Shown here piece after piece: positions 19,713 to 37,231 of a stretch of 64,000 nucleotides of DNA (position 1 is the first letter of the stretch; every line of letters starts with the position of its first letter). The DNA is from Longimicrobiales bacterium (lineage in GTDB: Bacteria; Gemmatimonadota; Gemmatimonadetes; Longimicrobiales; Gaopeijiaceae). The position numbers and the translations under genes were made by a program. Under the pieces are notes generated by a model. The model saw only the letters and a program-made list of their open reading frames with translations. It was not told the DNA's origin and ran no database searches. Where the stretch lies: positions 1,568,001-1,632,000 of the forward strand of contig CBDCNQ010000005.1 in assembly GCA_965219445.1 (NCBI GenBank). Reading direction: 5' to 3'.

Positions 19713-20675
19713 TCAGGCCGTCTTGTCCATCGGATGGGCCGCGAGCGCCTGCCGCAGTTTCGGGTGCTTGACCCACAGATAGTATCCCATTGACAAGGTG
19801 GCTAGAACGTTGCCCACCAGAATCGCCCACCAGGCCAAGGCACTGAGCAGAAACTCGGCCGACAGCGCCATCAGTCCCATGAAGAACGCTTCGAAGGCCG
19901 CGAAGAGCATCACGGCACCGATGATGAGCGGAGGCGTGTCCTCGGCATACCCGGCGATGGCTGCCGCGATGAAGCCCGTGGCGAAGAAGGCGCCGATGTG
20001 GATGATGCTGTAGCCGGCCACCGTGGCCAACGAGACGTTTACAGTGGTCGGATCCGAGGAGCCGAGAAAGAGCGCCGAGCCGAGCGCGCCGGGCGTGAAG
20101 AAGGGCTGTCCTCGTCCCATGTCGATGATCAGGAACCACAGCGCGACGGTGCCCGCCCCGACGAGCCCCGCCATGGAGCCTTCCTTGAATACCCTATTCT
20201 GGCCGACGATGGCCCACCACGATACGGGTTGCGTCGCGCCGGCGAAGTGGAGAAAGCGCATGAGAGACACACCGGCGATGAGGTTGCCCACCAGAACGGC
20301 AGGCCACCCGAACTCACCAATGACGTCGACCCCCGTGACCGTGACGCTCGTGTAGAAGACCAGATCGAAGAGCCCGAAGCCGAGGACCAGCCCCAGGAAT
20401 AAGCTCGGTGTCGGTGGGATCTTGGGGAGGACCCACGATACGCCGACACCCAAGACGATGAAGGCGACGTAGTGAATGAGGGTGTAGAGAAGCACAGGAC
20501 CGGCGGTCGGTTCGAGGGCATCTCGGCCCAAGAGAGCGCCTCCCAGGAACCCCGGCGTACGGAAAGGCTCACCCTGGGAGCCGTCGATCACCAAGAACCA
20601 GAAGGCGAGAGCAGTGGCGCCGATCACTCCGGCGACTACTCCACGGGGAACGAGGCCTCTAAACCGTATACTCAT
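19713..20675 (-). CDS. Polytopic membrane protein made of two internal repeats
   Basis: Two copies of AG..GA...A.WFL.ID...G.PF.TPG.LG.AL....Y..IH..AF. Confidence 0.75.
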   Translation of the reverse strand: MSIRFRGLVPRGVVAGVIGATALAFWFLVIDGSQGEPFRTPGFLGGALLGRDALEPTAGPVLLYTLIHYVAFIVLGVGVSWVLPKIPPTPSLFLGLVLGFGLFDLVFYTSVTVTGVDVIGEFGWPAVLVGNLIAGVSLMRFLHFAGATQPVSWWAIVGQNRVFKEGSMAGLVGAGTVALWFLIIDMGRGQPFFTPGALGSALFLGSSDPTTVNVSLATVAGYSIIHIGAFFATGFIAAAIAGYAEDTPPLIIGAVMLFAAFEAFFMGLMALSAEFLLSALAWWAILVGNVLATLSMGYYLWVKHPKLRQALAAHPMDKTA

Positions 20676-20970: not shown

Positions 20971-21240
20971 CTAGAACTCGGTAATGACAGCCAATACGAG
21001 GATGACTGCCAGGGGAAGCGGTGACACCGCCAGAACCCACAACCGTCTCGGCTCGTATCGCAGATGCATGTAATACATCGCCACCAAGAGCGCCTTCCAA
21101 AGCGCCATGAGAATGAGTCCCACCGCCAATACCACCTTCGGTAGATCCAGGAAGGCGTATCCTAGCTCACCCAGAGTGAGCACGAGAAGTATGAACCAAA
21201 TCAGGATATAGCGCGGGTGCGCGTGTTCTTGCTCTTCCAT
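20971..21240 (-). CDS. Cytochrome c oxidase subunit IV family protein
   Basis: Y..IW..L.VLT..E and KA.LVA.YYMHLRYE motifs. Confidence 0.85.
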   Translation of the reverse strand: MEEQEHAHPRYILIWFILLVLTLGELGYAFLDLPKVVLAVGLILMALWKALLVAMYYMHLRYEPRRLWVLAVSPLPLAVILVLAVITEF

Positions 21241-21561: not shown

Positions 21562-22185
21562 TCATATGAGGTAGACGATGGTGAACAGGATAATCCAAAC
21601 GAGATCGACGAAATGCCAGTAGAGGCCGATCACCTCCACACCCTCGCAGTCCTGAACCGTGTAAGCGCCACGGAGCGCCATGACGTAGACGAAAATCAAG
21701 CAGAGGACCCCGATCGTCACATGGGCCCCGTGGAACCCGGTCATAGCGTAGAAGGTGGCTCCGTAAAGCGGGCCGCCCTCGGCCCCGTACGCATCTAGCA
21801 TCGGGACGAAGGCCTCATGCGTCAGCGCGATGTACTCGACGGCTTGGATGCCCACGAAGCTCGCTCCGATCAGAATCGTGGCGAGGAGCCACTTCTTGAG
21901 GCCGTTCTGGTCGCCGTCCTGGATGGCCGCAAAGGCCTTGACCATTGTGACCGACGAACAGATCAGGATGAACGTGTTCACGGCGGTCAAAGGCACGTTC
22001 AGGACGACTCCCGGCTCGGTCCAGTGGTCCGGGTGGGCAAACCGGAGGATGATGTAGGAACCGATCAACGACGTGAAGAACATCACCTCGCTGAGCAGGA
22101 ACACCCACATACCCAACTTCTTGTTGTAGACCTTCATCCCTGGCATGGGCTTGCGGTCCATGGTCGCAACGGCTGCGTTGCTCAT
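21562..22185 (-). CDS. coxC: Heme-copper oxidase subunit III
   Basis: GMWVFLLSEVMFF, TGFHGAHV and GLYWHFVDLVW motifs. Confidence 0.9.
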   Translation of the reverse strand: MSNAAVATMDRKPMPGMKVYNKKLGMWVFLLSEVMFFTSLIGSYIILRFAHPDHWTEPGVVLNVPLTAVNTFILICSSVTMVKAFAAIQDGDQNGLKKWLLATILIGASFVGIQAVEYIALTHEAFVPMLDAYGAEGGPLYGATFYAMTGFHGAHVTIGVLCLIFVYVMALRGAYTVQDCEGVEVIGLYWHFVDLVWIILFTIVYLI

Positions 22186-22188: not shown

Positions 22189-23988
22189 TCAGTCTCCAGG
22201 AACGGGTTCGGGGGTCGGGGATACGGCCGGCTTTCCGTCCGTCCCGCTGGTCGCGGGCGGAGCGTCCTGAGGCCAGAAGTCCTCTTCGACGTCCGGATGA
22301 CTGTACTCGTACGGGCCACGGTACACGATGGGCATCTCCGGGAAGTTGCCGTGGGGTGGGGGAGACGGAGTGGTCCACAACAGCGTGTTGGACTTCCAGG
22401 GGTTGTTGCCGGCTTCCTTACCGTAGCGCAGGCTCCACAGGAAGTTGAACGCGAAGATCACCTGCGTGACCGCGAAGAGGAATACGCTGATCGAGATGAA
22501 CGTATTCATAGGCTGTAGCCCCTGCAGGAACTCGTATTGGTTGGGATCGTAGATGCGGCGCATCATCCCTTGCACACCCAGATTGTGCATCGGGAAGAAC
22601 GCCATGTTATAGAAGACGAACGAGAGCCCGAAATGCCACTTGCCGAGTCCCTCGTGCATCATCCGGCCGAACATCTTCGGATACCAGAAGATAATCCCCG
22701 CGAAAATTCCGAAGAGGCTTCCACCCACCAGAACGTAGTGGAGGTGCGCCACGATGAAGTAGGTGTCGTGGATGTAGATGTCGACTGGAGCCGCGGCCAT
22801 GAAAACCCCCGACAGCCCTCCGATGATGAAGAGCGACACGAATGCGACCGCGTGCAGGAGGGGCGCGTCGAAGTGGATGTCCCCACGCCAGAGCGTTCCC
22901 ATCCAGTTGAATACCTTGATCGCCGAGGGAACAGCGATCACGACCGTCGTCACCACGAAGGTCATACCGAGGAGCGGGTTCATGCCGCTCTGGAACATGT
23001 GGTGGCCCCAGACGACCCATGACAAGAACGCGATGGACACCAACGCGATCACCATGGAGTGGTAGCCGAAGATCGGCTTCCGGGACCGGCACGCGATCAC
23101 TTCGGACGTGAAGCCCATGGCGGGCAGGATCAGGATGTACACTTCGGGGTGGCCGAAGAACCAGAATATGTGCTGCCAGAGGAGAGGTTCGCCGCTACCC
23201 TCGGGGCGGAAGAAGGCCGTTCCGATCGTCTGATCGAAGAGCAGCAGAATCAGCCCGCCCGTGAGAATCGGGATGGCCAAAAGAAGAAGCCACGCGGTGA
23301 TGAAGAGCGACCACGTGCCAAGCGGGATCCGAAACCATGTCATCCCCGGCGCCCGCATGTTGATCACGGTCGAGACGTAGTTCAAAGAGCCCAGGATCGA
23401 GGAGAAGCCCAGAACGATCAGAGAGACCAGCCAGAGGATCTGCCCCATGTAGACGCCCGTCCACTCACCCGAGCTGCTCAACGGCGCATAGGAGGTCCAA
23501 CCGGCTCCCGCGGCGCCTCCCTCGACGAAGAAGCTTGCCAGCATGATCACTCCCGCGACGGGCATGATCCAGAAGGACGCCATGTTGATCCGGGGGAACG
23601 CCATGTCCTCCGCGCCGATCTGGAGCGGGATCAGGAGATTGCCGAAAACCCCCGCCATGAGCGGCATGAGCGCGAAGAACACCATGAAGGTGGCGTGCAT
23701 CGTGACCAGGGAATTGTAGAACTCGGGTAGGATGATGCCGCCCGGTGCCATGGTGTCCGGAAAGATACCCCTTATGAAAGAGGGCAGGGGTCGTCCCGGG
23801 AAACCGAGCTGCCAGCGAACCATGACCGCGAGCAGTCCTCCCAGCAGCAGGAAGAACAATCCGCTGAAGAGGAACTGTCTCGCGATCATCTTGTGATCGG
23901 TAGAGAAGATGTAGGTTCGGATGAAGCCGAGATCGTGGTGCTCCTCGGCGTGTCCGGTATGCGGCTCCGTCGCAGTGATCGTGCTCAT
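22189..23988 (-). CDS. coxA: Cytochrome c oxidase subunit I, A1-type
   Basis: STDHK, TMHA, WFFGHPEVY, WGHHM, VAHLHY and MMRR motifs. Confidence 0.95.
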   Translation of the reverse strand: MSTITATEPHTGHAEEHHDLGFIRTYIFSTDHKMIARQFLFSGLFFLLLGGLLAVMVRWQLGFPGRPLPSFIRGIFPDTMAPGGIILPEFYNSLVTMHATFMVFFALMPLMAGVFGNLLIPLQIGAEDMAFPRINMASFWIMPVAGVIMLASFFVEGGAAGAGWTSYAPLSSSGEWTGVYMGQILWLVSLIVLGFSSILGSLNYVSTVINMRAPGMTWFRIPLGTWSLFITAWLLLLAIPILTGGLILLLFDQTIGTAFFRPEGSGEPLLWQHIFWFFGHPEVYILILPAMGFTSEVIACRSRKPIFGYHSMVIALVSIAFLSWVVWGHHMFQSGMNPLLGMTFVVTTVVIAVPSAIKVFNWMGTLWRGDIHFDAPLLHAVAFVSLFIIGGLSGVFMAAAPVDIYIHDTYFIVAHLHYVLVGGSLFGIFAGIIFWYPKMFGRMMHEGLGKWHFGLSFVFYNMAFFPMHNLGVQGMMRRIYDPNQYEFLQGLQPMNTFISISVFLFAVTQVIFAFNFLWSLRYGKEAGNNPWKSNTLLWTTPSPPPHGNFPEMPIVYRGPYEYSHPDVEEDFWPQDAPPATSGTDGKPAVSPTPEPVPGD

Positions 23989-24671
23989 CAGTCAGCCTCC
24001 GCTGCGGCTTGCTGCTCCGCGAGCCAATCTTGGAAATCAGCCTGTGAGTGGACGGTGACCGTCCCTCCCATTCGATAGTGCCCGAGCCCGCAGAGCTCGG
24101 CACAGGCCAGGGTAAACTCACCGGTCCGTGTCGCTTCGAACCAGACCGGGATCACCATGCCCGGCACCGCGTCCTGCTTCACCCGGAATTCGGGAAGGAA
24201 GAAGGAGTGGATCACGTCCTCGGCCATCAGTTCGACCCGAACGGGTCGATCGACCGGAATGTGTAGGGCATTTAGGGAGACGAAATCGTCCGACGTGTTG
24301 AACTGTCCGTCGGCGCCCGCATAGGTGGCGCTCCACTCGAACTGAGCGCCCGTGATGTGGATCGGATATGCGTTGGCCGGGATGCGATCGGGATCACGGA
24401 TCTCGTCCCAGATGCCCTTCGAGTAGAATGCCAAAGCCATGACGATGACAAACGGAACCGCGGTCCAGATGATCTCGGCCTTGGTGCTGCCGTGGATGTA
24501 CTCCGCTTTCCGTCCTTCCTTGTGGCGGTACTTCACCATGAAGTACAGCAAGGGAATCTCCGTGGCAAAGAAGATGATCCCCGTGACCCAGAGGATCACG
24601 ACCCACAGGCTGTCTAGAGCCGGCCCGAACGTCGACACGACGTTGTCCGGCATGAGCCAGGAAAAATTCAT
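23988..24671 (-). CDS. coxB: Cytochrome c oxidase subunit II (CuA, no fused cytochrome c)
   Basis: EIIWT, DVIHSF and CAELCGLGHYRM motifs. Confidence 0.93.
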   Translation of the reverse strand: MNFSWLMPDNVVSTFGPALDSLWVVILWVTGIIFFATEIPLLYFMVKYRHKEGRKAEYIHGSTKAEIIWTAVPFVIVMALAFYSKGIWDEIRDPDRIPANAYPIHITGAQFEWSATYAGADGQFNTSDDFVSLNALHIPVDRPVRVELMAEDVIHSFFLPEFRVKQDAVPGMVIPVWFEATRTGEFTLACAELCGLGHYRMGGTVTVHSQADFQDWLAEQQAAAEAD

Positions 24672-24769: not shown

Positions 24770-25621
24770 TTAGGATGCTTCCGCGATTGCGTGAAGGTCG
24801 ATCGGAGCGCCGAGAGGCACCACGGCGTTCTGAGCCATGGGGGCACTGAACGTAAACGTGACCTCGGTGGTCTCGCCCGTGGTCACTGTCACCGTCTGGG
24901 TCTGAGTACCGTAGCGCTCATGCCACGCTTCGATCACGTACTCGCCCGGAGGCAGCGTGGACAGGTCGAAAGCACCACTGCCGTTTGAGACGGAGTGATA
25001 CGGATGATCCAGAACACCGACATAGGCGTTCATCCAACCGTGGACATCACAGCGCAGAGGCACCATGACCTCGGTCGTGCCGAAGTTGCGCGTGGTCTCC
25101 ATGTTGACCGGCTGACTGGTGTTGAAGCCACGCTGCTCATTCGGCGACGCGTTGATGTTGTGCAGAACGCCGTCGCTGTTCCGAATCGTGATGTCTTGAT
25201 CCACCATAACGCCAAGGACATGAGGGATGTAGACACACCCGTTCTGATCTAGCAGAGCTGGTCCGGGCGTCGGGAACTGGAGGCTCTCGAGCCCCTCCCT
25301 CACGTAGACGAAAACGTTGGCCAGAGTGCCGTTGCCGTTGACGACGACTTCCGGGACCATCGGTGTGGACGAGTGCTTGGCCGCACACACGGACTCGCTG
25401 GCCATGTTGATGGCATCCATGCTGGGCGCGCTGCCCTCGAAGACGATGGAGCCCGCGATGTTGCCGGCCGTGGCCGCGTCGACCGGGTTTTCCACGGCTG
25501 CTCCACCTCCGGCGCCACCACCTCCGGCACCTCCTCCTCCATCTCCGCCCCCGCAGCCGGCCATGAGCAGGAGCATGAGTGCGGGCGCGACGACTCCGCG
25601 CAATTCAGATCGATCCGACAT
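24770..25621 (-). CDS. Lipoprotein with cupredoxin-like and carboxypeptidase-regulatory-like domains
   Basis: Lipobox MAGC, Gly-rich linker, DQNGC, LHN, CDVHGWM and GEYVIEAWHE. Confidence 0.75.
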   Translation of the reverse strand: MSDRSELRGVVAPALMLLLMAGCGGGDGGGGAGGGGAGGGAAVENPVDAATAGNIAGSIVFEGSAPSMDAINMASESVCAAKHSSTPMVPEVVVNGNGTLANVFVYVREGLESLQFPTPGPALLDQNGCVYIPHVLGVMVDQDITIRNSDGVLHNINASPNEQRGFNTSQPVNMETTRNFGTTEVMVPLRCDVHGWMNAYVGVLDHPYHSVSNGSGAFDLSTLPPGEYVIEAWHERYGTQTQTVTVTTGETTEVTFTFSAPMAQNAVVPLGAPIDLHAIAEAS

Positions 25622-25646
25622 TATGCCTCCAATAGGATAAAATGGT

Positions 25647-27278
25647 TCAGTAATTCGGTGTCTCGCTTTCTACTTTGCCGCCCTTCCGCTCCCTCTTCTG
25701 AGCGCGGCCTACTACCAAGAATCCCAACGCGGCCGTCAACATCATAGCCAAAGCGGGCGCTACATATACCGTGGCGGGAGTGGCGTCCTCTAGGAACAAA
25801 AAGTACCAGGAACTGACCGCACCCCTTGTGCCCGATTCCCCGTTGTCTCCATCCCAGGCGAACAAAGCCATCGGAATGGCCTCACCGATCACGAAGTCGA
25901 GGTCGCCTTCGTCCTCCGTGACGAGCGACCTCGTGAACATGACCTGCCACTGGCCGTCGGCATGCGAGACGTCTAGGGTAAGGTCTCGCCCCTCCGATTG
26001 GAAGGCCTCGGTTCCGAGGCCGCGGGCCTCGCCTTCGAGGGCATCTTCACGATCACTTTGCCACTGCCAGAGATAGACCGGACGGCGGTTGTCCCCACCC
26101 AGAAAAAACGGCCGCTCCATACCCTCTGGCATCTGCATCGGGAACTGGACCACGAGCTGATCGGGCGTCGGCCCCTCATCCGGTGGGTCGCCCTCCTTCG
26201 GTTGCATGAGCGAAATCACTTGGGACTTCCAGTCGGCCCATCGAGGGTCGGGGCTGTTGTTGGGATCGCTCCAAGAAACGCGAACGGCCACGGACCCGCC
26301 GTCATGTGCGGCCTGCACCCAAACGCCCACCACGCGCGGGTCGAACCACCGCGGCATCACAATGATTTGTCCGACGAGCGGGAGGTAGGCGCGCTCGACA
26401 CCTTCCCACGCCTCGTCGTCGACGGACGACGGAAGCGGAACGCCCTCGAAGAGGACGCCCCGAACCACCTCGGTGATTCCCGGCGGGTCCTCAGGGGCGA
26501 GACTGCGAACGTAATGCGAAATGGCCCAGAGCTGATCGTCGGTGATGACGCCCGCCTCGATGATGTCACCGAAGTTCGGCATGGGCGTACCGTCCAGGCC
26601 CGTCCGCAGTCGACGGTAGATGTCCTCGACGTCTCCGCCGCCGTTGAACAGCCAGTTTTTGGTCAGGTCAGCCGCACGAATAGGAAAGTCGCCGTCGTCG
26701 ACGAGCGTCGGAGAAGATTCTCCGTCGCCTCTGCCCCCGTCCCCGTGGCACTGCCAACACTCGATCGCTTGGTACTGTGCCTGGCCTTCGGCGAGGACCT
26801 CGTCGTTGACCCGGGTCGCGCTACCGAAGTCGAGCGGCTGTGGGACTTCATCGGGAGAGAAGAAGCGCGAGAACGTCTTGAGGTACTCGACCAGCGCCTC
26901 TTTCTCGTCGCCCGAAAGAAGTTCCTCCCATCCGGGCATCGTCGTGCCCGGCATCCCCCGGTCGATGATGTTGAGAATATCCTCATCCGTCGGGAGCGCG
27001 CCGCTGGCTGTGGTGCGAATCTGGTAAAGCGCCTGGGTAAAGTCTCGCGGCCGCGGAAGCATGTAGCCGGCGCCGTCGCCGTCGCCGGTCCCGTCCACCC
27101 CGTGACAGCCCGCACACCAACGGTCATAAGTAACCTGACCAAGATTATCGCCGTCCTGGGCACTCAGGCCACCCACTGTCAATGCCGATGCCGCAGCGAG
27201 TAAGACCGCCAGGGGCATCCACCTCGGGATAGAGCCGGCGCTCTGGTACATCGTTCCCTTCGTCGACGCGGCCGTCAT
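25647..27278 (-). CDS. Diheme c-type cytochrome with EB_dh/DOMON-like domain and C-terminal membrane anchor
   Basis: CAGCH and CWQCH, each followed by GMPGTTMP / GLDGTPMP; WDGDNGE and SSWYF at the end; terminal TM. Confidence 0.8.
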   Translation of the reverse strand: MTAASTKGTMYQSAGSIPRWMPLAVLLAAASALTVGGLSAQDGDNLGQVTYDRWCAGCHGVDGTGDGDGAGYMLPRPRDFTQALYQIRTTASGALPTDEDILNIIDRGMPGTTMPGWEELLSGDEKEALVEYLKTFSRFFSPDEVPQPLDFGSATRVNDEVLAEGQAQYQAIECWQCHGDGGRGDGESSPTLVDDGDFPIRAADLTKNWLFNGGGDVEDIYRRLRTGLDGTPMPNFGDIIEAGVITDDQLWAISHYVRSLAPEDPPGITEVVRGVLFEGVPLPSSVDDEAWEGVERAYLPLVGQIIVMPRWFDPRVVGVWVQAAHDGGSVAVRVSWSDPNNSPDPRWADWKSQVISLMQPKEGDPPDEGPTPDQLVVQFPMQMPEGMERPFFLGGDNRRPVYLWQWQSDREDALEGEARGLGTEAFQSEGRDLTLDVSHADGQWQVMFTRSLVTEDEGDLDFVIGEAIPMALFAWDGDNGESGTRGAVSSWYFLFLEDATPATVYVAPALAMMLTAALGFLVVGRAQKRERKGGKVESETPNY

Positions 27279-28075
27279 TCCGCCTCCCCTTCCCCGCCCT
27301 CTTCCTCGAACGTGCGTGGCTCGTGGCCGGCCTGCTCATACAAGAAGATGATCACGGACCAGATCTCATCTTCGGTGAGAAAGTCCTCCCATGCCGGCAT
27401 GGCCGAGTCCCACGAAGCCCCCTCGTTGGGGAGCCCGGGACCTCCCTTCGAGACCCGCCAAAAAACAAAGCTCTCGGTAAGCTGCGCGATGGTGCCGATG
27501 TCCTGGAAGTTCAAGGGGGCGGGATTGAATCCATGCGCGTAATGCCCCTGGCCGTCGAGCCCGTCACCGTGGCAAGCCAGGCAGTTCTCATAGTAGACGC
27601 GCTTCCCCTCTTCGTAGTGCTCCTCCATGGAGCCTTGCGAGCGCAAGGGGTTCTCCAGGGTGGCGAGCTCCATGAGGGTTCCCTGGAAGTCGATCTGGCC
27701 GGGAGGCGCGGGGTGAATCGAGCGAAGGCTCACGGGCGCGGCCACGGACGGCATTACCTGATTGAAGGTCGCGTACGCAACGAAGACAGGGACCAGCACC
27801 ATGAGCGAGTTTCGCGTCGTCTTCCGGCTCGGATCTACCATCACGCTATGGATCGGCGCCTTGAATTCCGTCCAGCGGGCCTCGTTGTCGCTGACCCAGA
27901 GGAGGACCCCAACGCCCACGGTGACGAGGAACTGGAGAAGCACGGAATTCGGGACCGGAGCACTCGGGATTCCGATCAAAGGCGGGATGTACGCGATCCC
28001 GAAATCCAGCAAGAGGTAAGAAACCACGAGGACCAGGACTGCCTGGCCCAAGGGATGCTTCAAGTGTTTGCCCAT
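27275..28075 (-). CDS. Membrane-anchored monoheme cytochrome c
   Basis: Three N-terminal TMs, CLACH, SAMPAW. Confidence 0.85.
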   Translation of the reverse strand: MGKHLKHPLGQAVLVLVVSYLLLDFGIAYIPPLIGIPSAPVPNSVLLQFLVTVGVGVLLWVSDNEARWTEFKAPIHSVMVDPSRKTTRNSLMVLVPVFVAYATFNQVMPSVAAPVSLRSIHPAPPGQIDFQGTLMELATLENPLRSQGSMEEHYEEGKRVYYENCLACHGDGLDGQGHYAHGFNPAPLNFQDIGTIAQLTESFVFWRVSKGGPGLPNEGASWDSAMPAWEDFLTEDEIWSVIIFLYEQAGHEPRTFEEEGGEGEAE

Positions 28076-28093
28076 CGCTATTCTCGCCTCCCC

Positions 28094-29536
28094 TTAGCGC
28101 TGGCTTGCCAGGAACTGTACGACGGTTTCCAACTGACTCGCAGAGAGCTGGTTGCCGAAAATTGGAGGCATCACGCCCACGAGACTATCGAAACCCACTG
28201 ATGCGCCGGCAGCCGGATCCAGGATCGATTCTCGGATATAGTCGGCATCGATGCGTGCGCCGATCCCGTCGAACGCAGGACCCATCGGCAAACCCTGTCC
28301 GTCGAATTCGTGGCAGCTGAGGCATGCATTTGCGTTCATGATCTCGACGGGATCAGTGGACGCGGTGACAGGCGGTGCTGCGGCCGTCGCCAGAGCACCC
28401 GAGCCATCGTCGCCCACACCAATGTCTGCACCGGTTACGGTGACCTCACCGCCGATGGACTCCAGGTAAGCTACGACCGCCCAGATCTGCTGGTTCGAGA
28501 GGGAGCGGCGCATATCGGGCATGATCGGGTCGAAGCCCTCCACGAGGTAGGCGCCCGGATCTATCATCGAGGCGTAGAGGTATGCCTTGCAGTCTTCGCC
28601 GGCTACGCGATTCGCGCACCGGACGCCGACCGTGCCCGTGCCTTCGTGGTCGGTGAGAAGATTCGGAGCCCTCGTGCCCAGTCCGTGACAGGCCACGCAG
28701 CCACCCGCGCCGTTGTACAGGAGCTCTCCGGAGGACGTCAACTCCTCGGCGCTCACGTCGGAGCCGAAGCTGAGCTCCACGGGCACCTCGGACTGTACCT
28801 GCGGAATGGAATTGGCCACGAGCGTGAAGGTGGCAAGGGTGCCGATCACGACCGCGAAAATCTTGAGGTTTTCTACCAGCATCGAGCGAGCCTCGTATCC
28901 TGATTCAACTCCTGAGTCGAATCCTGACGCCGCATGGGCCACCCCCACCGGCTCTTCCAGGGGCTCAGATCCTGGGTCGAGTCCTGGCGGCCCAGGGGCC
29001 ACCCCCACCGGATCTTCCCGGAGTTCATACGGATCCTGGCCCATCAGGATGCCCCTGGCTCGCTCGAGGCGATCCGCCGCCACCGTCACGTAGATCCCGA
29101 ACTTGCCCGCACTGAACTCCGGATCGTAGACGACCATCGGTTTGATATAGGGCAGGCGGCTGCTGATGAAGAGCCCGATCACGGTGGCCAACGCACCGAA
29201 CAACACCATCATCTCGAACGCGATGACGACGTAAGCGGGAATCGAGAGGATCGGCTTTCCACCCGTGACCAATGGCCAATCCATCGAGGTAAACGACGTG
29301 AGCGCGAACCCTCCGGCAGCGCCGCAGAGCCCGCCCGCCAACGCCCACACCCTGACGGGACTCTGATCGTACCCGAGCGCCTCTTCGATTTGATGCTCGG
29401 GGTACGGCGTGTAGGCCGTGATCTTCTTGAGGCCGGCCGCCTGAAGCTCCTCGATGGCGTTCACGGCCGAATCTACGTAATCGAACGAGGCCAGGAGGCC
29501 CATCGTGCCGCTCCGACCTTCAATCAAATTCTGCAT
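28094..29536 (-). CDS. ActD (DUF3341)-like domain fused to a diheme cytochrome c
   Basis: YTPYP, DWPLVTGGKP and FEMMVLFGAL, then CVACH and CLSCH; ATG at 29536 overlaps the upstream stop. Confidence 0.75.
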   Translation of the reverse strand: MQNLIEGRSGTMGLLASFDYVDSAVNAIEELQAAGLKKITAYTPYPEHQIEEALGYDQSPVRVWALAGGLCGAAGGFALTSFTSMDWPLVTGGKPILSIPAYVVIAFEMMVLFGALATVIGLFISSRLPYIKPMVVYDPEFSAGKFGIYVTVAADRLERARGILMGQDPYELREDPVGVAPGPPGLDPGSEPLEEPVGVAHAASGFDSGVESGYEARSMLVENLKIFAVVIGTLATFTLVANSIPQVQSEVPVELSFGSDVSAEELTSSGELLYNGAGGCVACHGLGTRAPNLLTDHEGTGTVGVRCANRVAGEDCKAYLYASMIDPGAYLVEGFDPIMPDMRRSLSNQQIWAVVAYLESIGGEVTVTGADIGVGDDGSGALATAAAPPVTASTDPVEIMNANACLSCHEFDGQGLPMGPAFDGIGARIDADYIRESILDPAAGASVGFDSLVGVMPPIFGNQLSASQLETVVQFLASQR

Positions 29537-31320
29537 CAATCGCCTGCGGCAGGAGCGAGCTCCGGCCCTCTTGGGGATACGGATGGACCCTCTGCCGCCG
29601 GCGATACAATGGGTTTCTCCGCCAACCCACCGAGCCAGAAAATGAACGCCACGAGGACGAAGAAGATCAGCACACAGGCGGAGATCACGATCGCCGCGTA
29701 CCCGAGCGCCGGCGTCGCTGCCCATTCACTGGTGTCCCGTACGACTTCCCACACATGCCAGTGCTGGCGGATTCCGCTCCGGGCGAAGCCCATGAGACCC
29801 ATCAGCCATGTGAACGTGACGGCCAGGATGAAGAGCGCGTACTGGGAACGAGGGGGCATCTGACCCCATCGGATCTCACCACGCGACACCGCGCCCCGCA
29901 TCATGAAGACATTGATCGCGACCACGCCGACGATGGTCACGAGCACCGCCAGGACCTGATAGACCGAGAAGCCGACTCGCACGATTGCGCTGACGAAGTA
30001 GCCGTACACCCCGTAGAACACAACGATGATCGTGGAGATCATGAACAAAGCCGCCTGCACCATCGTCCCCGTCCTGGCCCACGGAACCGTCGGATCCGAG
30101 TTCGCGCGCAAGTAGAGCAGGAACGAGAGGAACGTCGTCAAGATCATGATGTTTACGGCCGTGTTCTTGGCGCTCATGACGCCGAGTACTCCGAGGAAGG
30201 GGTGGTGTGTTCCACCCATTGCTGCAATCTCTTCACGGTTGGCGATCATCGTGTGCGGTGTCGCCCATACGATGACGCCAACGACCAGGACGATCAGCAT
30301 GTATTTCGTGTAGGGTGTGAAGCGCTCGGCCCCCGGGATCCGTCCCATACCGACCCACAGGTAATAGTTGCCTGCTAGGAACAGCACTCCGATCAGGAAG
30401 GCCTGGATGATCCAGAGCCAGCTCATGAACCCACCCATCAAGGTGATGCCCATCTGCTGGTTGTACTCGTAGATCTCTCGGCCGAGGTAATAGCCGGCGA
30501 AGGGCAGGACAAGGAGCGCGGAGATCGCGATCAAGTTTCCGATGTAGCCCATCCAGTCGTAGTGGGCGCGCTCCTCATCGGTCCTGGCCAGCAGGAAGCG
30601 GTAGGCCGCATAGGCGCCCACGATCGCTCCGCCGAACACGACATTGGCGATGACCCGGTGGATGTTGATGGGCATCCAGGTCGCATTCGCGAAGGCACTC
30701 CACGTCTGCACCATCGCGGGCGCGGTGTCCGGGCCAACGTCCGCTGGCGGACTCATCATGTATGTGAGCCACGAGTTGGCGATGAGCATCACCGCCGTGC
30801 CCCAGACATTCAGCAGGATCCCCAATGTCCAGTGGCCCAGTTTGGCCCGTCCCTGATTCCAGCGGTCCCAACCGTAGTAGTACAAGTAGAGAGTGAACGA
30901 CTCGAAGAAGAAGAGCCCCACGTAGAACCACATGGAGACCTCGAAGATTTCCGCAAGGTAGACCCAGAGGTTCGGGAAGATCGTGACCAGGAGGAAGGAG
31001 AGGATGGCACCCCAGATCGCCGTGGCAGAGTATGCGACGAGCAAGAGCCGTGTGAACTCCTTCGCGAGTTTATCGTACTTCGACTCCCCCCCGAACATGC
31101 CAATGGCCTCGGCGACCACCGCGAACATGGGCACGCCGAGCACGAACGCCGCGAAGAGAAGGTGGACTTGCGCCGCGACCCAGACGGCCACGCGCCCCCC
31201 AACCAAAGGAAAATCTCCGTAGGATCGGCCGGCGATTTCCTGCGCCCAGGCCACCTCGGGGAAAACGTGAAGGGCCAGCGCGGACAGGCTCATGGCCCCC
31301 AGGAGCTTCAAGCTCATCAT
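29536..31320 (-). CDS. Cytochrome bd subunit I-like (CydA-like) membrane protein
   Basis: QVHLLFAAFVLG, FFFES, ANSW..YMMSP, NIHR and RSGIRQHW resemble CydA motifs; ATGA overlap with the radical SAM gene. Confidence 0.8.
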   Translation of the reverse strand: MMSLKLLGAMSLSALALHVFPEVAWAQEIAGRSYGDFPLVGGRVAVWVAAQVHLLFAAFVLGVPMFAVVAEAIGMFGGESKYDKLAKEFTRLLLVAYSATAIWGAILSFLLVTIFPNLWVYLAEIFEVSMWFYVGLFFFESFTLYLYYYGWDRWNQGRAKLGHWTLGILLNVWGTAVMLIANSWLTYMMSPPADVGPDTAPAMVQTWSAFANATWMPINIHRVIANVVFGGAIVGAYAAYRFLLARTDEERAHYDWMGYIGNLIAISALLVLPFAGYYLGREIYEYNQQMGITLMGGFMSWLWIIQAFLIGVLFLAGNYYLWVGMGRIPGAERFTPYTKYMLIVLVVGVIVWATPHTMIANREEIAAMGGTHHPFLGVLGVMSAKNTAVNIMILTTFLSFLLYLRANSDPTVPWARTGTMVQAALFMISTIIVVFYGVYGYFVSAIVRVGFSVYQVLAVLVTIVGVVAINVFMMRGAVSRGEIRWGQMPPRSQYALFILAVTFTWLMGLMGFARSGIRQHWHVWEVVRDTSEWAATPALGYAAIVISACVLIFFVLVAFIFWLGGLAEKPIVSPAAEGPSVSPRGPELAPAAGD

Positions 31321-32750
31321 CCCCTTCCTCCTCTTCTGAGAAAGAACGGAAGCTTCTTGGAGAAATCCACGGGAAGGTTGCGACGAACCTCCTCCATGAC
31401 CTCCACATCTACACGTGTGTAACCGCGGTCCTGGGCGAACTTCTCGACCCTTGCCATGACCACTCCACGAACGAAGCTCGGTACGCTGTCGATACGGGCG
31501 AGGGCCTGCGGAGACCACTCGATCACGGCGGTTGCGGCGTGCTCGGCGGAGACCGGTCCGTCGTCTGCGATCAACCGCCTGTCTGGGCCCGACCGCCCGT
31601 AGGAGACAGATCGGCGAGGCTCAATGAGGGGTGTCTCTCCAGAGGGCTCGTAGGCGCAGGAGTCATCCGGACCCATGAAGTCGCCGCTGTCGGCGTAGGC
31701 GCGAGCACGGCATCCTCCACACACCTCCCGAAACTCGCACCGTCCGCACCGTCCGCCGAGCTCGCCCGACCTGAGCTGAGTGAATATGAGCGACGACTCC
31801 CAGATTTCCTTGAAGCTCTGCGTCAACAAGTCCCCCGCGGCCACGGGCATGTAAGGACACGGGGTGACTTTGCCCTCCGGTGTGATACGCACGTAGTGGA
31901 CGCCGCATGGGCAGCGAGTCTCATAATTGAGAAGGGGAGACTCCGGATCACCCTGGACCACGTGGCGCATTATTTGAGGTTGGCACTTCGAGCGGACCAT
32001 CATGCGGCCCCGATACGTTCCCTCCAGCTCGACGAGTTCTCGCAAGACGCTGTCGTTCTCTTCAGGACTCATGCCCTGCATGAGTCCTGCTCGCCCGGTG
32101 GGCACCACGAAGTAGACGTTGAAGGAAACGGCGCCCGCCTCGGCGGACCAGCGAGCCAAATCTGCTATCTCGTGCCTATTGCCGGTTGTGACCGTCGTCT
32201 GAATAACGAAATCGAGCGTTCGGGTGGCGCAACGCTCGACCGCCGCCATCGTGTCCGTGAGTGCGCCCCCGCCGTGCCGGAATCGATCATGGTACTCGGG
32301 ACGGAGCGAGTCGATGCTGACGGCGACACCTTTGACACCGGCCCCCATTAGAGAGTCGATGCGCTCCTCGGTCAGGCGCGTCCCGTTCGTGCCCACCACG
32401 ACCGTGGCGCCCCGCCCCGAGGCTCGCTCGGCCAGGGCTTCCAGGTCGTCTCGCAGGAGGGGCTCTCCCCCCGTGAGGATCAGCATGGGGTTGGGGTTCA
32501 CGTCGAGGATCTCATCCACGATGCGCAGGCATTGATCCGTTGTGAGCTCATCGTCGGCTGCATGCCAGGAACCCGCCGAGATATAACAGTGCGCGCACGC
32601 CAGGTTGCATCGTTTCGTGAGGTTCCACGCAACGATGTGCGGAATGTACGGACCACGCTCACGGCTCGGTGAGACCGTCTCAAGCCCATCCGGAAGGGGG
32701 GGGGTCAGAGCTGCCGAAGAGGCGGACCTGAGATCGGCTGCGAGGGTCAC
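31317..32750 (-). CDS. Radical SAM/SPASM protein (AhbC/AhbD/NirJ-like) with C-terminal PCP_red domain
   Basis: WNLTKRCNLACAHC, GGEP, CPCG..ITPEGKVTPCPY, CGRCEFREVCGGCRARA; C-terminal WSPQA..R...VPSFVRG. Confidence 0.82.
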   Translation of the reverse strand: MTLAADLRSASSAALTPPLPDGLETVSPSRERGPYIPHIVAWNLTKRCNLACAHCYISAGSWHAADDELTTDQCLRIVDEILDVNPNPMLILTGGEPLLRDDLEALAERASGRGATVVVGTNGTRLTEERIDSLMGAGVKGVAVSIDSLRPEYHDRFRHGGGALTDTMAAVERCATRTLDFVIQTTVTTGNRHEIADLARWSAEAGAVSFNVYFVVPTGRAGLMQGMSPEENDSVLRELVELEGTYRGRMMVRSKCQPQIMRHVVQGDPESPLLNYETRCPCGVHYVRITPEGKVTPCPYMPVAAGDLLTQSFKEIWESSLIFTQLRSGELGGRCGRCEFREVCGGCRARAYADSGDFMGPDDSCAYEPSGETPLIEPRRSVSYGRSGPDRRLIADDGPVSAEHAATAVIEWSPQALARIDSVPSFVRGVVMARVEKFAQDRGYTRVDVEVMEEVRRNLPVDFSKKLPFFLRRGGRG

Positions 32751-34915
32751 GCTTCGCTCGGTTCCTGTCTCATGAATTGTTCGATCGCGGCCTTTGCGTC
32801 CTCCGGTGAGACGGTCTTGAAGTCCACCGGGCAGTCCTCGGCGGCCTCGGCCACGTCCCGAATCGGGCAGCGCGTCACGCCGCTGGCCTTGGCCTCCTCG
32901 ATGAATTTCCGCATCTCGGGGGTCATGCCGTCGACGCCCTCGGCTGCCGCTTTGATCTGCTTTGTCTGGAGTTCTCGGAACATGACCAACATGGTGTCCA
33001 TGTCGAACTCGTCGGCCTCGATCATGGCCTGCTTGTTCTCATCCATCACAGGCGTGGTGACTCTCCAGAAGTCGTTCTCACGGGCGAAGCGCTCCACCGT
33101 GTTGCGGGCCAACGGCCTCGCGATCAACGGCACCTGCTTCAGTCGGTCGAAAGCCTCCTCGGTCCACTCGATAAGATCGTCCGCCGTCCGTTCGCGCATT
33201 AACGGATGACCACTGTACGGGCAGGTGGCGGAGATCATGGGGACCTCCGGCTGCGGGTCGGAATCCAAACCGTTGACCAGCGTCCGCTTCATCGCTTCGT
33301 CGGCCTTCACCTCGGCGAGGGCGAGCTCCTCTGCTGTGCCGATCCCCATGATCAACTGCATGTGGGTCGGAAGCAGCTTCGTGATGGCTTCGTCCAAGCG
33401 AGGGCTCGTCACCATCGGAAGACCGCCAACGCCGAGCGGGGGCACCGACGCGCCCGGATCCGCACCGTTGGTGGCGGCCTCGGTTCCCGTGAGGGTTGCC
33501 CCTTCGCCGTTAGCCGAGGAGCCGCTTCCGTTTTTCGTGGTGGCGGTGCCCTTCGAGGCCGCCTGCACGATCGACTCTTCGCGGTACGTGCCATTGGCTC
33601 CAGCGCCGTAGTTGTCGAGCACGTATTCTTCAACCGCTTTACGGGCGATCCCGAGTGCGAACGGCGGCACCCGAAGAATTCGGACTTCGGCATCGGGCGC
33701 CCACTCGAGCCCGGTCTCACCGTCCTCTTCGATCCAGGGAATGTCGTCCGGGCGAACGTCGGTCGTGCCGATGAGCAGGATGTTCGTGGGTGAGAGGCGG
33801 CACAGATTATCCGCCTGAGATCCCATGTCGGTACCCTCGATCCGGTGCCCCCCGTGGCGTGCGAGGATCAGAAGGCTCGGCTCGATCTCCTCGATCCACT
33901 GAAGGATGCATTGGAAGGGTTTACCGATGAGGATCTGCGTCTCGACCTGGACCTCGGGGAACTCCTGCGCCATCACCTCGGCCCGCTTGAGATTGGCCTG
34001 TGCCAGCTTCAGAAGACCCTTGTCGATGATGTTGTTATGGAGCTCTTCCTGCTCCTCGAACTTGAAGACCTTCGAGGCTTGCACGGAAAGAATGTCCTTG
34101 ATGTTCCCGAACACGGCGTGGTGGTATTCCACATCGAAGGCCGAGCACACATGAAGCTTCGCCCCGAACTCCTTGGCCATCTCCAAGGCATGCCGCATGG
34201 CCTTGTAGGAGTACGAAGAACCGTCGACACAGACGATCCAATCACCGCCTTCTAGTGCGCGTTCGTCCCTGACGATCAAGGTGTCCTTTTCGACCTGGCG
34301 GATGACCCGCGAAACCATCCCACCCAACTGTGAGTAGGGCTGCTTGCCGATCCCATGCGCACCGATGGCGAGGAGGTCATAGTCGCGACCACTCGAGCCG
34401 GCGAGCTTCTCATCCTGGTCCTCGTCCTCCGCGACGATCCGCCCGTCCTCGTCCACGATGACGTCGCTACGGACGCTTTCACCGCCGTCGTACTTGTCCG
34501 CGATGTTCGGGTCGAAGCCGATCAAGCTGGGAAGGCGGCCGGCGCCTCGGTTGGCCTCCCGAGAGACCTCCTCATAGTTGATGCCCTCGAGGAGCTGCCG
34601 GGTCAGCGGTACGCCCGCCGTCTCACAACTGTTGGCGGTCTGATCGAGAAAGGAATCCGATATGAGCTGGAGGCCCTTCTCGATCAGCTTGTCGTGAACC
34701 TTCCTCTGCCGCTTGATTTCTTCCGCGCTCTGGAACTGGGCGGGGAGCCCGGTCTCCAACTGTCGAAACCGCACATCGTGAAGGCGAGCAGCGTACACAT
34801 GATTGCCAGTGATCCGCCCCTCGGAGCGTTTACAAAGCTCGATGGCGCGGTCAACCGCCCAGTGTGAATTATCGGAGTTGTCGACGGGTACGAAGACTTC
34901 ACGGTACATAAGCAC
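32747..34915 (-). CDS. Tandem universal stress protein domains plus two PCP_red-like domains
   Basis: VPVDNS..S, GAHG, VCVDGSSYS, ARHG and MGSQA; WAPDAE.R..RVP.F and WTEEA..RL..VP. Confidence 0.75.
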   Translation of the reverse strand: MLMYREVFVPVDNSDNSHWAVDRAIELCKRSEGRITGNHVYAARLHDVRFRQLETGLPAQFQSAEEIKRQRKVHDKLIEKGLQLISDSFLDQTANSCETAGVPLTRQLLEGINYEEVSREANRGAGRLPSLIGFDPNIADKYDGGESVRSDVIVDEDGRIVAEDEDQDEKLAGSSGRDYDLLAIGAHGIGKQPYSQLGGMVSRVIRQVEKDTLIVRDERALEGGDWIVCVDGSSYSYKAMRHALEMAKEFGAKLHVCSAFDVEYHHAVFGNIKDILSVQASKVFKFEEQEELHNNIIDKGLLKLAQANLKRAEVMAQEFPEVQVETQILIGKPFQCILQWIEEIEPSLLILARHGGHRIEGTDMGSQADNLCRLSPTNILLIGTTDVRPDDIPWIEEDGETGLEWAPDAEVRILRVPPFALGIARKAVEEYVLDNYGAGANGTYREESIVQAASKGTATTKNGSGSSANGEGATLTGTEAATNGADPGASVPPLGVGGLPMVTSPRLDEAITKLLPTHMQLIMGIGTAEELALAEVKADEAMKRTLVNGLDSDPQPEVPMISATCPYSGHPLMRERTADDLIEWTEEAFDRLKQVPLIARPLARNTVERFARENDFWRVTTPVMDENKQAMIEADEFDMDTMLVMFRELQTKQIKAAAEGVDGMTPEMRKFIEEAKASGVTRCPIRDVAEAAEDCPVDFKTVSPEDAKAAIEQFMRQEPSEA

Positions 34916-34997
34916 CTCGGGCGGCGGCCCTCATTATCACGGTCTTCGGCGCCCCTACAAAGGGCGCTTGTTCCAAATGGTGCATGTTGTGCGCATG

Positions 34998-35027
34998 AGT
35001 ATACCCGACCCCTCTCAGGGCTGTCAA
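34998..35027 (-). promoter_or_regulatory. Sigma70-like promoter for the USP-to-cox gene run
   Basis: Minus strand TTGACA (35027-35022), N18, TATACT (35003-34998), ~80 nt upstream of the USP start. Confidence 0.6.
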
Positions 35028-35058
35028 CAAAGGGTGAGTCGGGGTGTCTAATCGGTTC

Positions 35059-35772
35059 TCATCGGCCGCCGAGCCCTATCGCATAGCGGCCGGCTACAGC
35101 AAGCAGAAGCAACACTGCGAGCGTGGCTCCGATGGGTGCTGTGAGCAGTGCCGGGTCCAAGTCGGACCCGCCGGCCCCGGCTGCCGAGAGTAAGGTCTCA
35201 TGGAGCGGACGGAAGGGATTCCACGCCTCCAGCGTGGCCTGCCATGTTTCTGGAACGGGGGTACGAAACGTGCCCGCCCAATGCAGAAACAGGAGAGCAG
35301 CCACGGCCGAGAAGAGTGCTCCTTCGGCGACGGATTTGGCCAAGGCAGCAGTGAGTGCCCCGAGCGCGTTCGCTGCCAGCAGTCCGAGTACCATGGCTGG
35401 TACGACGATGGCCAGCTGAGAAGCCGAACTTCCCCTCGCTGCGGCGATGACCAGCACCGACGGCGCCAGCTCGATCAGGTCGAGTACGGTGGTGGCGAGT
35501 ACGCGCTGAAGAAGGAGGCCACCGGGGTGAACTCCTGTGAGCACGTAACGCCGGAGAAGCCCCGACTCACCATCACGGATCAGTGGGATGCTCGAGCCGA
35601 ACGTGCCGAACAGGGCGAAGAGCACGGTGAAGACGGCCGCCGCGTGTACGGCGGGCGCCGAGCTGAGCGCGATGGTGGCCACGAACGTCAGGGGAATCAG
35701 AATGTTGAACAGAAAGAGGCGTCGGCGCCGTAGGGCGGTGAGCCATTCCGTCCTCCACACGGCGAGCGTCAC
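35059..35772 (-). CDS. ABC-2 type permease
   Basis: About six TMs, RD.ESG.L motif; GTG overlaps the ATPase stop. Confidence 0.75.
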   Translation of the reverse strand: MTLAVWRTEWLTALRRRRLFLFNILIPLTFVATIALSSAPAVHAAAVFTVLFALFGTFGSSIPLIRDGESGLLRRYVLTGVHPGGLLLQRVLATTVLDLIELAPSVLVIAAARGSSASQLAIVVPAMVLGLLAANALGALTAALAKSVAEGALFSAVAALLFLHWAGTFRTPVPETWQATLEAWNPFRPLHETLLSAAGAGGSDLDPALLTAPIGATLAVLLLLAVAGRYAIGLGGR

Positions 35773-36728
35773 GCGTCCTCTTTCTGTGTGCCCAAGGCGT
35801 GTCTCTCTGGGCCGAAGGCTTCGCCGGTGAAATGCGTGAACACGTCCGTGAGGTCGGGTTCCCGGAGCTCGATCCGCTCGATCTTCAGCCCCGTGCCGAG
35901 AATCGTGCCAACCAACTGCGGAAGGACGTCTGGGCCGGATCCGCTCTCGGCGATGATCCGCCCCGGTAGTTGTTGGATCGAAAGGATGTCCGCCGGGAGC
36001 TCCGCGAGGTCCACCGGAGGGCCAGCGACGTGCACCTCGATTCGCGTGGCACCGCCGACTTCGGCGAGAAGCTGGGATGGACTGCCGTGCGCGACGACCT
36101 TCCCTTCGTGGAGAAGAACCACCACTGTGGCCAATGCTTGGGCCAGTGCGGGTTCGTTGGTGGCGACGAGCGTGCACACACCCTTTGCCGAGCGCTCCTC
36201 GAGTATAGAAAGGAGTGCTTCCCGCGAAGGTGGATCGAGGCCGAGCGCCGGCTCGTCCAAAATGAGCATCTTGGGCTCGTGAACCAGAGCCTGTGTGATG
36301 AGAAGCTTTTTCTTCATCCCGTACGAGTACTCCCTCGTGGGGACGTGAAGCGCATCATCGAGGCCCATCGACGTGAAAAGCGCCTCCAGGGCCCTCGCAG
36401 ACCTGTCCCGAGGTAAACCGTAGAGCTCGGCGAACAGGAGTCCGTTCTCCATCCCGGTGAGATAGTCGACGTGGACCGGCGTATCCTGAACGATGCCGAT
36501 CTTTCTGCGGACCTCTCGCGAAGAGCGTCCGTAGGCTTCGCCGAAGAGGGTGAGCGATCCGGGGCGGGAGGGGAGTTCCGTGGATACCAGGCGAAGCAAA
36601 GTGCTTTTTCCGGATCCGTTCGGGCCCATCACGACCACGCGATCCCCGGGGCCTCCTCCGAGGGAGACCCCTCGCAGGCCCCTACGGCCCGAGGGATAGG
36701 TGAAGGAAAGCTCCGTGGCGCCGAACAA
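35769..36728 (-). CDS. ABC transporter ATP-binding protein
   Basis: GPNGSGKST, YSYGMKKK and LILDEP; probable TTG start just after the upstream stop. Confidence 0.85.
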   Translation of the reverse strand: MFGATELSFTYPSGRRGLRGVSLGGGPGDRVVVMGPNGSGKSTLLRLVSTELPSRPGSLTLFGEAYGRSSREVRRKIGIVQDTPVHVDYLTGMENGLLFAELYGLPRDRSARALEALFTSMGLDDALHVPTREYSYGMKKKLLITQALVHEPKMLILDEPALGLDPPSREALLSILEERSAKGVCTLVATNEPALAQALATVVVLLHEGKVVAHGSPSQLLAEVGGATRIEVHVAGPPVDLAELPADILSIQQLPGRIIAESGSGPDVLPQLVGTILGTGLKIERIELREPDLTDVFTHFTGEAFGPERHALGTQKEDA

Positions 36729-36730
36729 GC

Positions 36731-37231
36731 CTACATCCCTTCCAGGCCCAACTCCGTGCGTGCCCGGTCCATGATATCGGGCGTGATCTCGGAAATCCCC
36801 TTCTCGCGTGCCCAATCGGTGTAAATCCGCTTCACCATGCCGCGGACGAAGCTGGGCACACGCTCGAGCCGGCCCGCGGCCTCGGCGGTCCACACGACTG
36901 GGCCCCCGGCGGCCTCGGCGGCGCTCACGCCCTCGCCCCGGATCGCCGGTTCACCCGAGGCGAGCGGGATATCCTCGGACAGAGCGAACGCACCCTCGCG
37001 GCCGCCCTCGAGTGACGTGCGCGCCAGCTCCATGGGCTGGGTGGGGACTTCGCGTCCGCCGATCTTCACACCCATACTCGAGACCAGCTGCGTCTCCATC
37101 GGGTTGGTGAGCATCGCCATCTCCCGTCCGCATGACCCGCACGTGAATACGGCCGCCAGCGTACCGTCCCCGGGAATCTGTCGCTCGGCGAACTCCATGA
37201 CGTTGTCACAGTCCACGCAGAGAAACTTCAT
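36731..37231 (-). CDS. Zn-ribbon (CxxC...CxxC) plus PCP_red domain protein
   Basis: MKFLCVDC...CGSC; C-terminal WTAEAAGRLERVPSFVRGMVK...ITPDIMDRAR; ATGA overlap with the Mrp gene. Confidence 0.75.
   Translation of the reverse strand: MKFLCVDCDNVMEFAERQIPGDGTLAAVFTCGSCGREMAMLTNPMETQLVSSMGVKIGGREVPTQPMELARTSLEGGREGAFALSEDIPLASGEPAIRGEGVSAAEAAGGPVVWTAEAAGRLERVPSFVRGMVKRIYTDWAREKGISEITPDIMDRARTELGLEGM

Follow-up and report, generated by a model that had tools for sequence, protein, structure and literature searches.

A fusion of ActD with a diheme cytochrome c may tether alternative complex III to a bd-like and aa3-type oxidase module in Longimicrobiales

In a Longimicrobiales bacterium of the phylum Gemmatimonadota (NCBI GenBank assembly GCA_965219445.1), genes for a CydA-like membrane protein, a fusion of the alternative complex III (ACIII) subunit ActD with a diheme cytochrome c, a monoheme cytochrome c, a diheme cytochrome c with an EB_dh domain and a predicted lipoprotein form a module on the minus strand, which is followed by the genes of an aa3 oxidase (Table 1). 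The module lies in a stretch of 64,000 nucleotides (contig CBDCNQ010000005.1, positions 1,568,001 to 1,632,000), referred to here as the window, and the host genome (G000) is 91.8% complete. The arrangement of five genes between positions 24,770 and 31,320 directly before coxII-I-III-IV, which had been read from the letters alone in an original prediction, is confirmed. The genes from usp to coxIII are separated by -4, -4, -1, 18, -4, 25, 98, -1 and 3 nucleotides, the last seven values covering the stretch from the CydA-like gene to coxIII, and coxIV follows after a further 321 nucleotides. Because the gaps are short and a sigma-70-like promoter match is found upstream of usp, the genes from usp to coxIII are likely transcribed as one unit. 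The promoter scan found 5 sites in comparison to 3.7 expected by chance; the terminator scan, which is weak evidence with 17 sites compared to a chance expectation of 11.7, placed none of them in the intergenic stretches from usp to coxIII. Conservation counts given below and in Table 1 refer to the best 80 of 577 confirmed loci; genes missed in these loci fall mostly at contig ends, a statement that covers all but three of the rows.

Table 1. Features of the bd-like module, its upstream genes and the adjoining aa3 oxidase genes (positions in the window)
Feature	Positions	Strand	Remarks
Sigma-70-like promoter match (11/12), candidate operon start	34998..35027	-	83 nt upstream of usp; consensus match only
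Tandem universal-stress domains + PCP_red domains (usp), 722 aa	32747..34915	-	in 75/80 loci
Radical SAM/SPASM + PCP_red protein	31317..32750	-	nearest models NirJ2/AhbD, below cut-offs; in 76/80 loci
OR-N-type CydA-like membrane protein, 594 aa	29536..31320	-	13 long helices after N-terminal hydrophobic helix; no Q-loop
ActD + two CxxCH fusion gene, 480 aa	28094..29536	-	spans ActD domain, linker and diheme c
ActD domain of fusion, about residues 1-170	29027..29536	-	keeps Glu108 (= R. marinus Glu122)
Fusion linker, about 48 residues, in-frame repeats of ActD's own C-terminal unit	28883..29026	-	27-87 residues in relatives (measured in 58 of 75 rows)
Membrane-anchored diheme cytochrome c half of fusion	28094..28882	-	homologous to Kuenenia Kustd1711; ancestral start Met219 kept
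Monoheme cytochrome c	27275..28075	-	2-3 N-terminal hydrophobic segments
Diheme cytochrome c + EB_dh/NxrC-like domain + C-terminal helix ('alt-NxrC' layout)	25647..27278	-	heme-b Met/Lys positions are Gly/Gly
Predicted lipoprotein, invariant His...Cys-x2-His-x2-Met set, likely type-1 copper site	24770..25621	-	set found in 66/66 loci
CoxII, CuA motif, without heme c domain	23988..24671	-	
CoxI, A1 type; only COX1-family gene found in genome	22189..23988	-	GHPEVY, D- and K-channel motifs
CoxIII	21562..22185	-	
CoxIV	20971..21240	-	

The N-terminal part of the fusion protein is an ActD domain (PF11821, E 3.6e-43), which matches 6LOD_D, 6F0K_D and 6BTM_D, and this copy, fused in frame to the diheme cytochrome c, is the only actD match in the host genome. 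The other ACIII genes, actA-B-C-E-F, form an operon far from the window (G000:C5:106377-113323), in which ActA carries five hemes and the stop codon of actC overlaps the start codon of actE; ActF was assigned by position and length and has no Pfam match. Since the window ActD is the missing subunit of this distant operon, the module is suggested to work downstream of complex III and not in its place. The fusion reading frame is open in at least 74 clusters (90% identity, among the best 120 matches), which come from several sources; for this reason, an artefact of assembly was rejected as its origin. In these clusters, mean identity to the query is 88% for the ActD part, 77% for the cytochrome part and 57% for the linker; Glu108 of ActD is kept in 73 of the 74 clusters, with a gap in the remaining one. 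Neither an ActD-diheme c fusion nor a relocation of actD was mentioned in the literature searched, which did not extend to the ACIII review by Refojo (2013). The relocation of actD and its fusion to the diheme cytochrome c are thus a new element, while the module itself is already known from genomes.

The absence of actD from the ACIII operon coincides with the fusion. All seven fused genomes in which both loci were examined (G000, G301, G302, G303, G430, G444 and G454) lack actD at the ACIII operon, whereas all nine unfused genomes (G304, G305, G326, G337, G324, G312, G317, G482 and G059) keep it there. A survey of 35 actC loci in 33 distinct genomes (30 top-ranking ones from a family search and 5 chosen ones) revealed that actD follows actC in 29 genomes, and that the 4 genomes without it carry the fusion. 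ActD is also missing from the ACIII operon in three further fused genomes and in one in which the module was not found; the unfused G482 retains it. In a search of 251 family genomes, in which the fusion would rank at the top of the best 150 rows listed, it was found in the window's genus only, where 7 genomes are fused, 1 is unfused and 4 (73-88% complete) gave no match. In the ActD tree, the fused ActD is nested next to its canonical sisters and thus represents the native copy; horizontal gain of a second actD was rejected, as there is a single copy nested among native ones. The unfused G317 (locus L107) falls inside the fused clade of this tree on a long branch and outside of it in the tree of ActC plus ActE; its placement within the fused clade was taken as an artefact. 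In many family genomes, among them G197, G059, G222, G338, G326, G337 and G317, a distance of 30-75 kb on one contig separates the ACIII operon from the module, and this arrangement may have facilitated the move of actD.

The order of the module genes recurs in 80 related loci, with the diheme cytochrome c in 79, the monoheme cytochrome c in 73, the diheme c and EB_dh parts of the third cytochrome in 72 and 70, the cupredoxin-like gene in 67 and coxII in 63 of them; the arrangement is therefore not due to chance, and the neighbourhood is conserved, which the original prediction had proposed to check by a synteny survey. The prediction's inclusion of an ActD-diheme c gene in the cluster is correct for the window, but ActD is part of the module operon in only 3 of the 80 loci, and in each of these it is fused in frame to the diheme cytochrome. 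Homologues are labelled Gemmatimonadota/Longimicrobiales at source, and full-length orthologues are present in 86 of 301 sampled Gemmatimonadota genomes (hand count of rows with at least 71% identity). These phylum tallies include one unpublished genome (G155), on which no single claim depends. In the phylum sample, actD was matched in 289 of the 301 genomes, and actC is present in 60 of 61 family genomes. A second, divergent Gemmatimonadota module of 660-670 aa proteins, 46-48% identical, was found at four loci (L121-L124, in G125, G058, G288 and G084), with two cupredoxin-like genes upstream where the stretch reaches and no cox genes in the fetched stretch; at L122, a gene pair resembling actA/actB follows after about 5 kb on the downstream side.

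The CydA-like protein is the single cydA-like match in the host genome. PF01654 covers residues 43-297 only (E 7e-17), and the protein contains no CxxCH motif. H53, E140, H221 and R518 align with His19, Glu107, His186 and Arg448 of Escherichia coli CydA and do not vary in any aligned row of the 80 loci, whereas Lys252 and Glu257 of E. coli CydA have no counterpart. Furthermore, Y133...E140 aligns without gaps to E101...E108 of Geobacillus CydA, thereby preserving the 6-residue spacing of the proton channel with Tyr in place of the first Glu, and Y147 and Y149 correspond to the tyrosine pair near the proton channel of Geobacillus CydA. Besides these residues, the 80 loci share H163, H373, H522, M382, K385, M507 and M510 without variation, and most of 34 distant relatives retain them. 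As the single-sequence fold was unusable (pLDDT 46), an alignment-based model was used (AF2, 82 sequences; pLDDT 81, pTM 0.81). It shows 13 long helices and an N-terminal hydrophobic helix, likely a signal peptide, where a hydropathy scan gives 12, and only 14 residues lie between the helices 248-286 and 301-327, so that the Q-loop is absent. The best structural matches of the model are four CydA chains (Z 23.1-24.8), the top one end to end (Z 24.8, rmsd 4.0, 356 aligned), followed by CydB, ActF and PsrC. The matches to ActF (Z 15.4-16.3) and PsrC (Z 13.7) reflect a bundle layout common to CydA, CydB and NrfD-like subunits.

The protein is not a canonical quinol-oxidising CydA. The CydB partner, Lys252 and Glu257 of the Q-loop as well as Glu99 and Glu445, by which canonical cytochrome bd (qOR) is recognised, are all missing; a profile search with PF02322, whose control matched 9 of 14, found no cydB in the 91.8% complete genome. 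Two candidate histidine ligands without a Q-loop, as well as the lack of cydB, actA/B/C and bc1 genes in the window, had been read correctly in the original prediction: the genome yields no match to cydB or to a bc-type cytochrome b, and its sole NrfD/ActC protein is encoded outside the window. A grouping with canonical CydA and a cydB partner elsewhere, which would have spoken against that prediction, was not found. The first four helices, the His19 equivalent, the lack of Lys252, Glu257, Q-loop and CxxCH and the approximately 14 helices agree with OR-N1 and OR-N2, which are subfamilies of the cytochrome bd superfamily (bioRxiv 10.1101/2021.01.16.426971). The operon contains no second cydA-like gene and the protein heads a cytochrome module, which is the context of OR-N2. 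A Nitrospirota-like locus (L158) has the identical four-gene order together with a divergent solo copy, and the window protein is 44% identical to the module-heading copy versus 38% to the solo copy. In the tree, the Gemmatimonadota proteins group in a separate clade that includes neither of the two Nitrospirota-like copies. The CydA-like protein thus fits OR-N1/N2 and appears OR-N2-like by context. The window module thereby belongs to the known OR-N ('bd-like') type, in line with the original prediction, which had pointed to poorly characterised bd-like proteins that cluster with c-type cytochromes in Nitrospira, Nitrospina and anammox bacteria.

The diheme cytochrome c of the fusion matches Kustd1711 of the nitrite oxidoreductase (NXR) cluster of Kuenenia (7ZS0, E 2.6e-21), whose hemes are given as near +350 mV (PMC11791136); by analogy, such a potential would fit an electron carrier operating between ACIII and an oxidase. 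In other lineages, the diheme cytochrome follows the CydA-like protein as a C-terminal fusion; among the 150 representatives listed, 4 show this match, one with both hemes (P0242, E 4e-36) and three in part (P0254, P0263 and P0387). Because these are natural fusions of the pair, we infer that the two proteins bind each other directly. The layout of the diheme c/EB_dh protein has been described as alt-NxrC for Nitrospina (PMC3578206). Position 394 of its EB_dh domain is Met in 43 of 70 loci, and position 486 is Gly in 50, Ser in 6, Ala in 6, Met in 4 and Asn in 1, with Lys not among the listed residues. These positions align with the Met/Lys ligand pair of heme b in EbdC/NxrC; as both are Gly in the window protein and the second is mostly Gly across the loci, heme b binding by the domain is doubtful. 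In the lipoprotein, His154, Cys191, His194 and Met197 are invariant in 66 of 66 loci and presumably constitute a type-1 copper motif. The description as a cupredoxin-like lipoprotein stands on these residues and this motif, as Pfam makes no cupredoxin call; a PDB sequence search returned low-complexity or unrelated matches only. A second cupredoxin-like lipoprotein, 31% identical, is encoded away from the module (G000:C5:776575-777318).

The oxidase genes complete the operon. In CoxI, the glutamate of GHPEVY, the residues of the D- and K-channels and the six His ligands were located, and CoxII contains the CuA motif; these are the marks of an A1 heme-copper oxidase. There is one COX1 gene in the host genome, ctaA is present, and no oxidase genes are adjacent to the ACIII operon in the fetched stretches. 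CoxII is devoid of heme c in all 63 loci with coxII, whereas in five of five genomes that lack the module, either CoxII itself bears a heme c (two genomes) or a multiheme cytochrome c gene lies directly upstream (three genomes). Electron transfer from ACIII to CuA therefore probably proceeds via the module.

From these findings, we propose with moderate confidence that ACIII is tethered to the module, which supplies electrons to the aa3 oxidase and probably also to the bd-like site, for the reduction of oxygen at both. In the solved ACIII of Rhodothermus marinus, ActD contacts ActC, both of its termini are cytoplasmic, and Glu122 is located near the quinol site (PMC5928083). The window ActD would still dock on ActC, and since the C-terminus of ActD is cytoplasmic in solved ACIII, the linker would stay in the cytoplasm and the next helix would place the diheme domain in the periplasm beside ActA/ActE. 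The anchor helix of the cytochrome would thereby hold two hemes beside the heme wire of ACIII, and the diheme cytochrome would bind the CydA-like protein. Electrons would then flow from menaquinol via ACIII and the diheme cytochrome to the other cytochromes and the copper protein and finally to oxygen, and the module would pass those received from ACIII on to CuA as well as to a heme site of its own. It is tempting to speculate that ACIII, the OR-N bd-like oxygen reductase and the aa3 oxidase even form a covalently tethered three-part supercomplex via the ActD-diheme c protein; this is a tentative extension of the proposal.

Several observations weigh against the proposal. As for oxygen reduction at the bd-like site, the position of Glu99/101 is occupied by Tyr133, Glu445 lacks a counterpart, Met393 of heme b558 could not be matched by alignment, and oxygen reductase activity has, according to PMC10839748, not been shown for any OR-N protein. 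This activity, which follows Murali et al. and the invariant active-site residues, is probable, but the altered glutamates leave room for another role. The CydA-like protein might be a heme scaffold or act on nitric oxide or peroxide, and the tether would then have a single outlet, with the module bridging ACIII and the aa3 oxidase. Apart from the two glutamates, the absence of heme c from CoxII, for which other cytochromes substitute where the module is missing, would agree with such a bridge, as would the presence of the same module in the anaerobe Kuenenia (PMC3578206), and the additional invariant H163, H373, H522, M382, M507 and M510 suggest cofactors unlike those of CydA. However, the equivalents of His19, Glu107, His186 and Arg448 are invariant, and orthologues are at least 69% identical across the phylum, which exceeds the needs of an anchor; we consider a single outlet rather improbable, albeit worth keeping in mind. 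Paralogous modules without aa3 genes in the fetched stretches (L121-L124 and L158) count on both sides, as they disagree with the proposed coupling to the aa3 oxidase and imply that the module has an outlet of its own. The reading of the original prediction as a second reductase fed by cytochrome c is plausible.

Other points concern the fusion itself. The eight genomes without actD at ACIII form one clade (UFBoot 96, tree of ActC plus ActE), so the fusion arose once, in one genus, and the pattern of seven versus nine genomes reflects a single event. Unfused sisters are common and keep the ACIII and module operons apart, often by 30-75 kb. The internal start Met of the cytochrome is kept in 71 of the 74 clusters, in the host genome GAGG is located 8 nucleotides before Met219, and a free diheme cytochrome c may be produced from this start. 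All of this, together with the long, variable and repetitive linker, would be expected if the fusion were a tolerated accident of rearrangement that is uninformative on contacts, the diheme cytochrome being made mostly from the internal start or released by a cut in the linker. We regard such an accident as unlikely, since no stop codon was regained in 74 clusters though the linker gained and lost whole repeats in frame, the internal Met was lost in three clusters, and the fused actD is the sole one found, so that any ActD-containing ACIII bears the cytochrome unless the linker is cut. One of the two readings of the original prediction was that the complex may pass electrons to the heme-copper oxidase in place of complex III; quinol would then be oxidised by the CydA-like complex at a non-canonical site. 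In favour of such a replacement, the genome (91.8% complete) yielded no bc-type cytochrome b, a quinone-interacting role was floated by Luecker et al. 2013 (PMC3578206), and the model shares the helical-bundle layout of ActF and PsrC (Z 13.7-16.3). That layout, however, is common to CydA and CydB as well, the Q-loop, Lys252 and Glu257 are absent, and the genome contains a complete ACIII gene set, with actA-B-C-E-F in the operon; moreover, actD is present in 84 of the 86 genomes with the module, and a PF13631 match was also obtained in 34 of the 86 (hand counts). A replacement of complex III is thus contradicted by the gene content and can be considered very unlikely. The genome search that the prediction had called for accordingly turned up ACIII genes, and neither a bc-type cytochrome b nor an NXR-type alpha subunit above the cut-off. 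A link to nitrite oxidoreductase was rejected, as the best score for a type II DMSO-reductase alpha subunit was 55.6 bits compared to a cut-off of 985. A molybdopterin-family gene with one in-frame TGA (G000:C5:799460-801142) possibly encodes a selenoprotein, for example a formate dehydrogenase, and three frames with eight CxxCH motifs each are present in the genome (G000:C3:443143-445410, C4:1077745-1080156 and C5:724101-726086).

Should the proposed tether exist, one quinol-oxidising complex would feed two terminal oxidases of different superfamilies via one wire. In Nitrospira and Nitrospina, OR-N proteins are presumed to act as terminal oxidases, and the fusion would identify ACIII as the complex that donates electrons to OR-N2 proteins in heterotrophs and offer a handle for purification. 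The ActD-diheme c and diheme c-CydA-like fusions together give a testable wiring diagram and a point for tagging. In addition, a genomic survey found ACIII in less than 10% of Gemmatimonadota genomes, with the authors' own caution on low similarity (PMC9426454); the presence of actD in 289 of 301 genomes corrects this picture of respiration in the phylum, and the module need not substitute for complex III.

Further genes accompany the module. Upstream of it (window positions 31317-38151, minus strand), genes for an Mrp/NBP35 ATPase, a small PCP_red protein, an ABC ATPase with a membrane protein, the Usp protein and the AhbD/NirJ-like radical SAM protein are located, and mrp, pcp, usp and the radical SAM gene are found in 60, 62, 75 and 76 of the 80 loci, respectively. 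Three of these companions bear PCP_red domains and the set possibly serves the maturation of heme or another cofactor; for the radical SAM protein, a role in heme maturation is possible. Downstream of coxIV, a 320-aa membrane protein with two similar halves (19713-20675, minus strand) has a match in 43 of the 80 loci, no Pfam or NCBIfam match and a 33% identical paralogue (G000:C4:261276-262214). The window also contains genes for fumarate reductase subunit C and likely subunit D (14642-15432, plus strand), a type II/IV secretion ATPase (15477-17288, minus strand) and an IS110 transposase (43227-44540, plus strand), which has a partly repeated end and probably a second copy on the other strand.

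The window system shares features with several known ones. Like OR-N1/OR-N2 proteins, those of the NIDE0901 type and TO_1 of Candidatus Manganitrophus (10.1101/2021.11.15.468770), the CydA-like protein has the His19 equivalent, no quinol site and about 14 helices, and its operon contains neither cydB nor a second cydA but c-type cytochromes and an EB_dh-type domain. In contrast to these systems, the host is of heterotroph type with no NXR-type alpha subunit found, the module shares its operon with an A1 aa3 oxidase, the diheme cytochrome has ActD as its fusion partner, the EB_dh domain lacks the Met/Lys pair and the Gemmatimonadota proteins form their own clade. The module of the NXR clusters of Kuenenia, Nitrospina and Nitrospira comprises, as described in PMC3578206, the same set of a bd-like protein, monoheme and diheme cytochromes c, an alternative NxrC and a cupredoxin-like protein; in the window host, however, the likely donor is ACIII instead of nitrite oxidoreductase, and no TorD-like or NXR genes are among the annotated genes of the operon. 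In the ACIII-oxidase supercomplexes of R. marinus (caa3) and Flavobacterium johnsoniae (aa3), ACIII is joined to an A-type oxidase via a heme c domain and soluble carriers are bypassed (PMC5928083, PMC8552683), an arrangement that is likewise proposed here. There, the bridging heme c is located on CoxII or ActA, whereas in the window host it is absent from both, the act operon is not linked to the cox operon, and the OR-N diheme cytochrome attached to ActD is the candidate for the bridge. Finally, ACIII is genetically paired with a bd-like protein also in Nitrospirales, which have an OR-N5 CydAA', and for TO_3 of Candidatus Manganitrophus (PMC12342949; 10.1101/2021.11.15.468770). Those systems combine two OR-N5 paralogues with an ActF-less ACIII, whereas the window host possesses a single 14-helix protein of the OR-N1/N2 type and an ActF, and the link between the two complexes consists of a gene relocation and a fusion.

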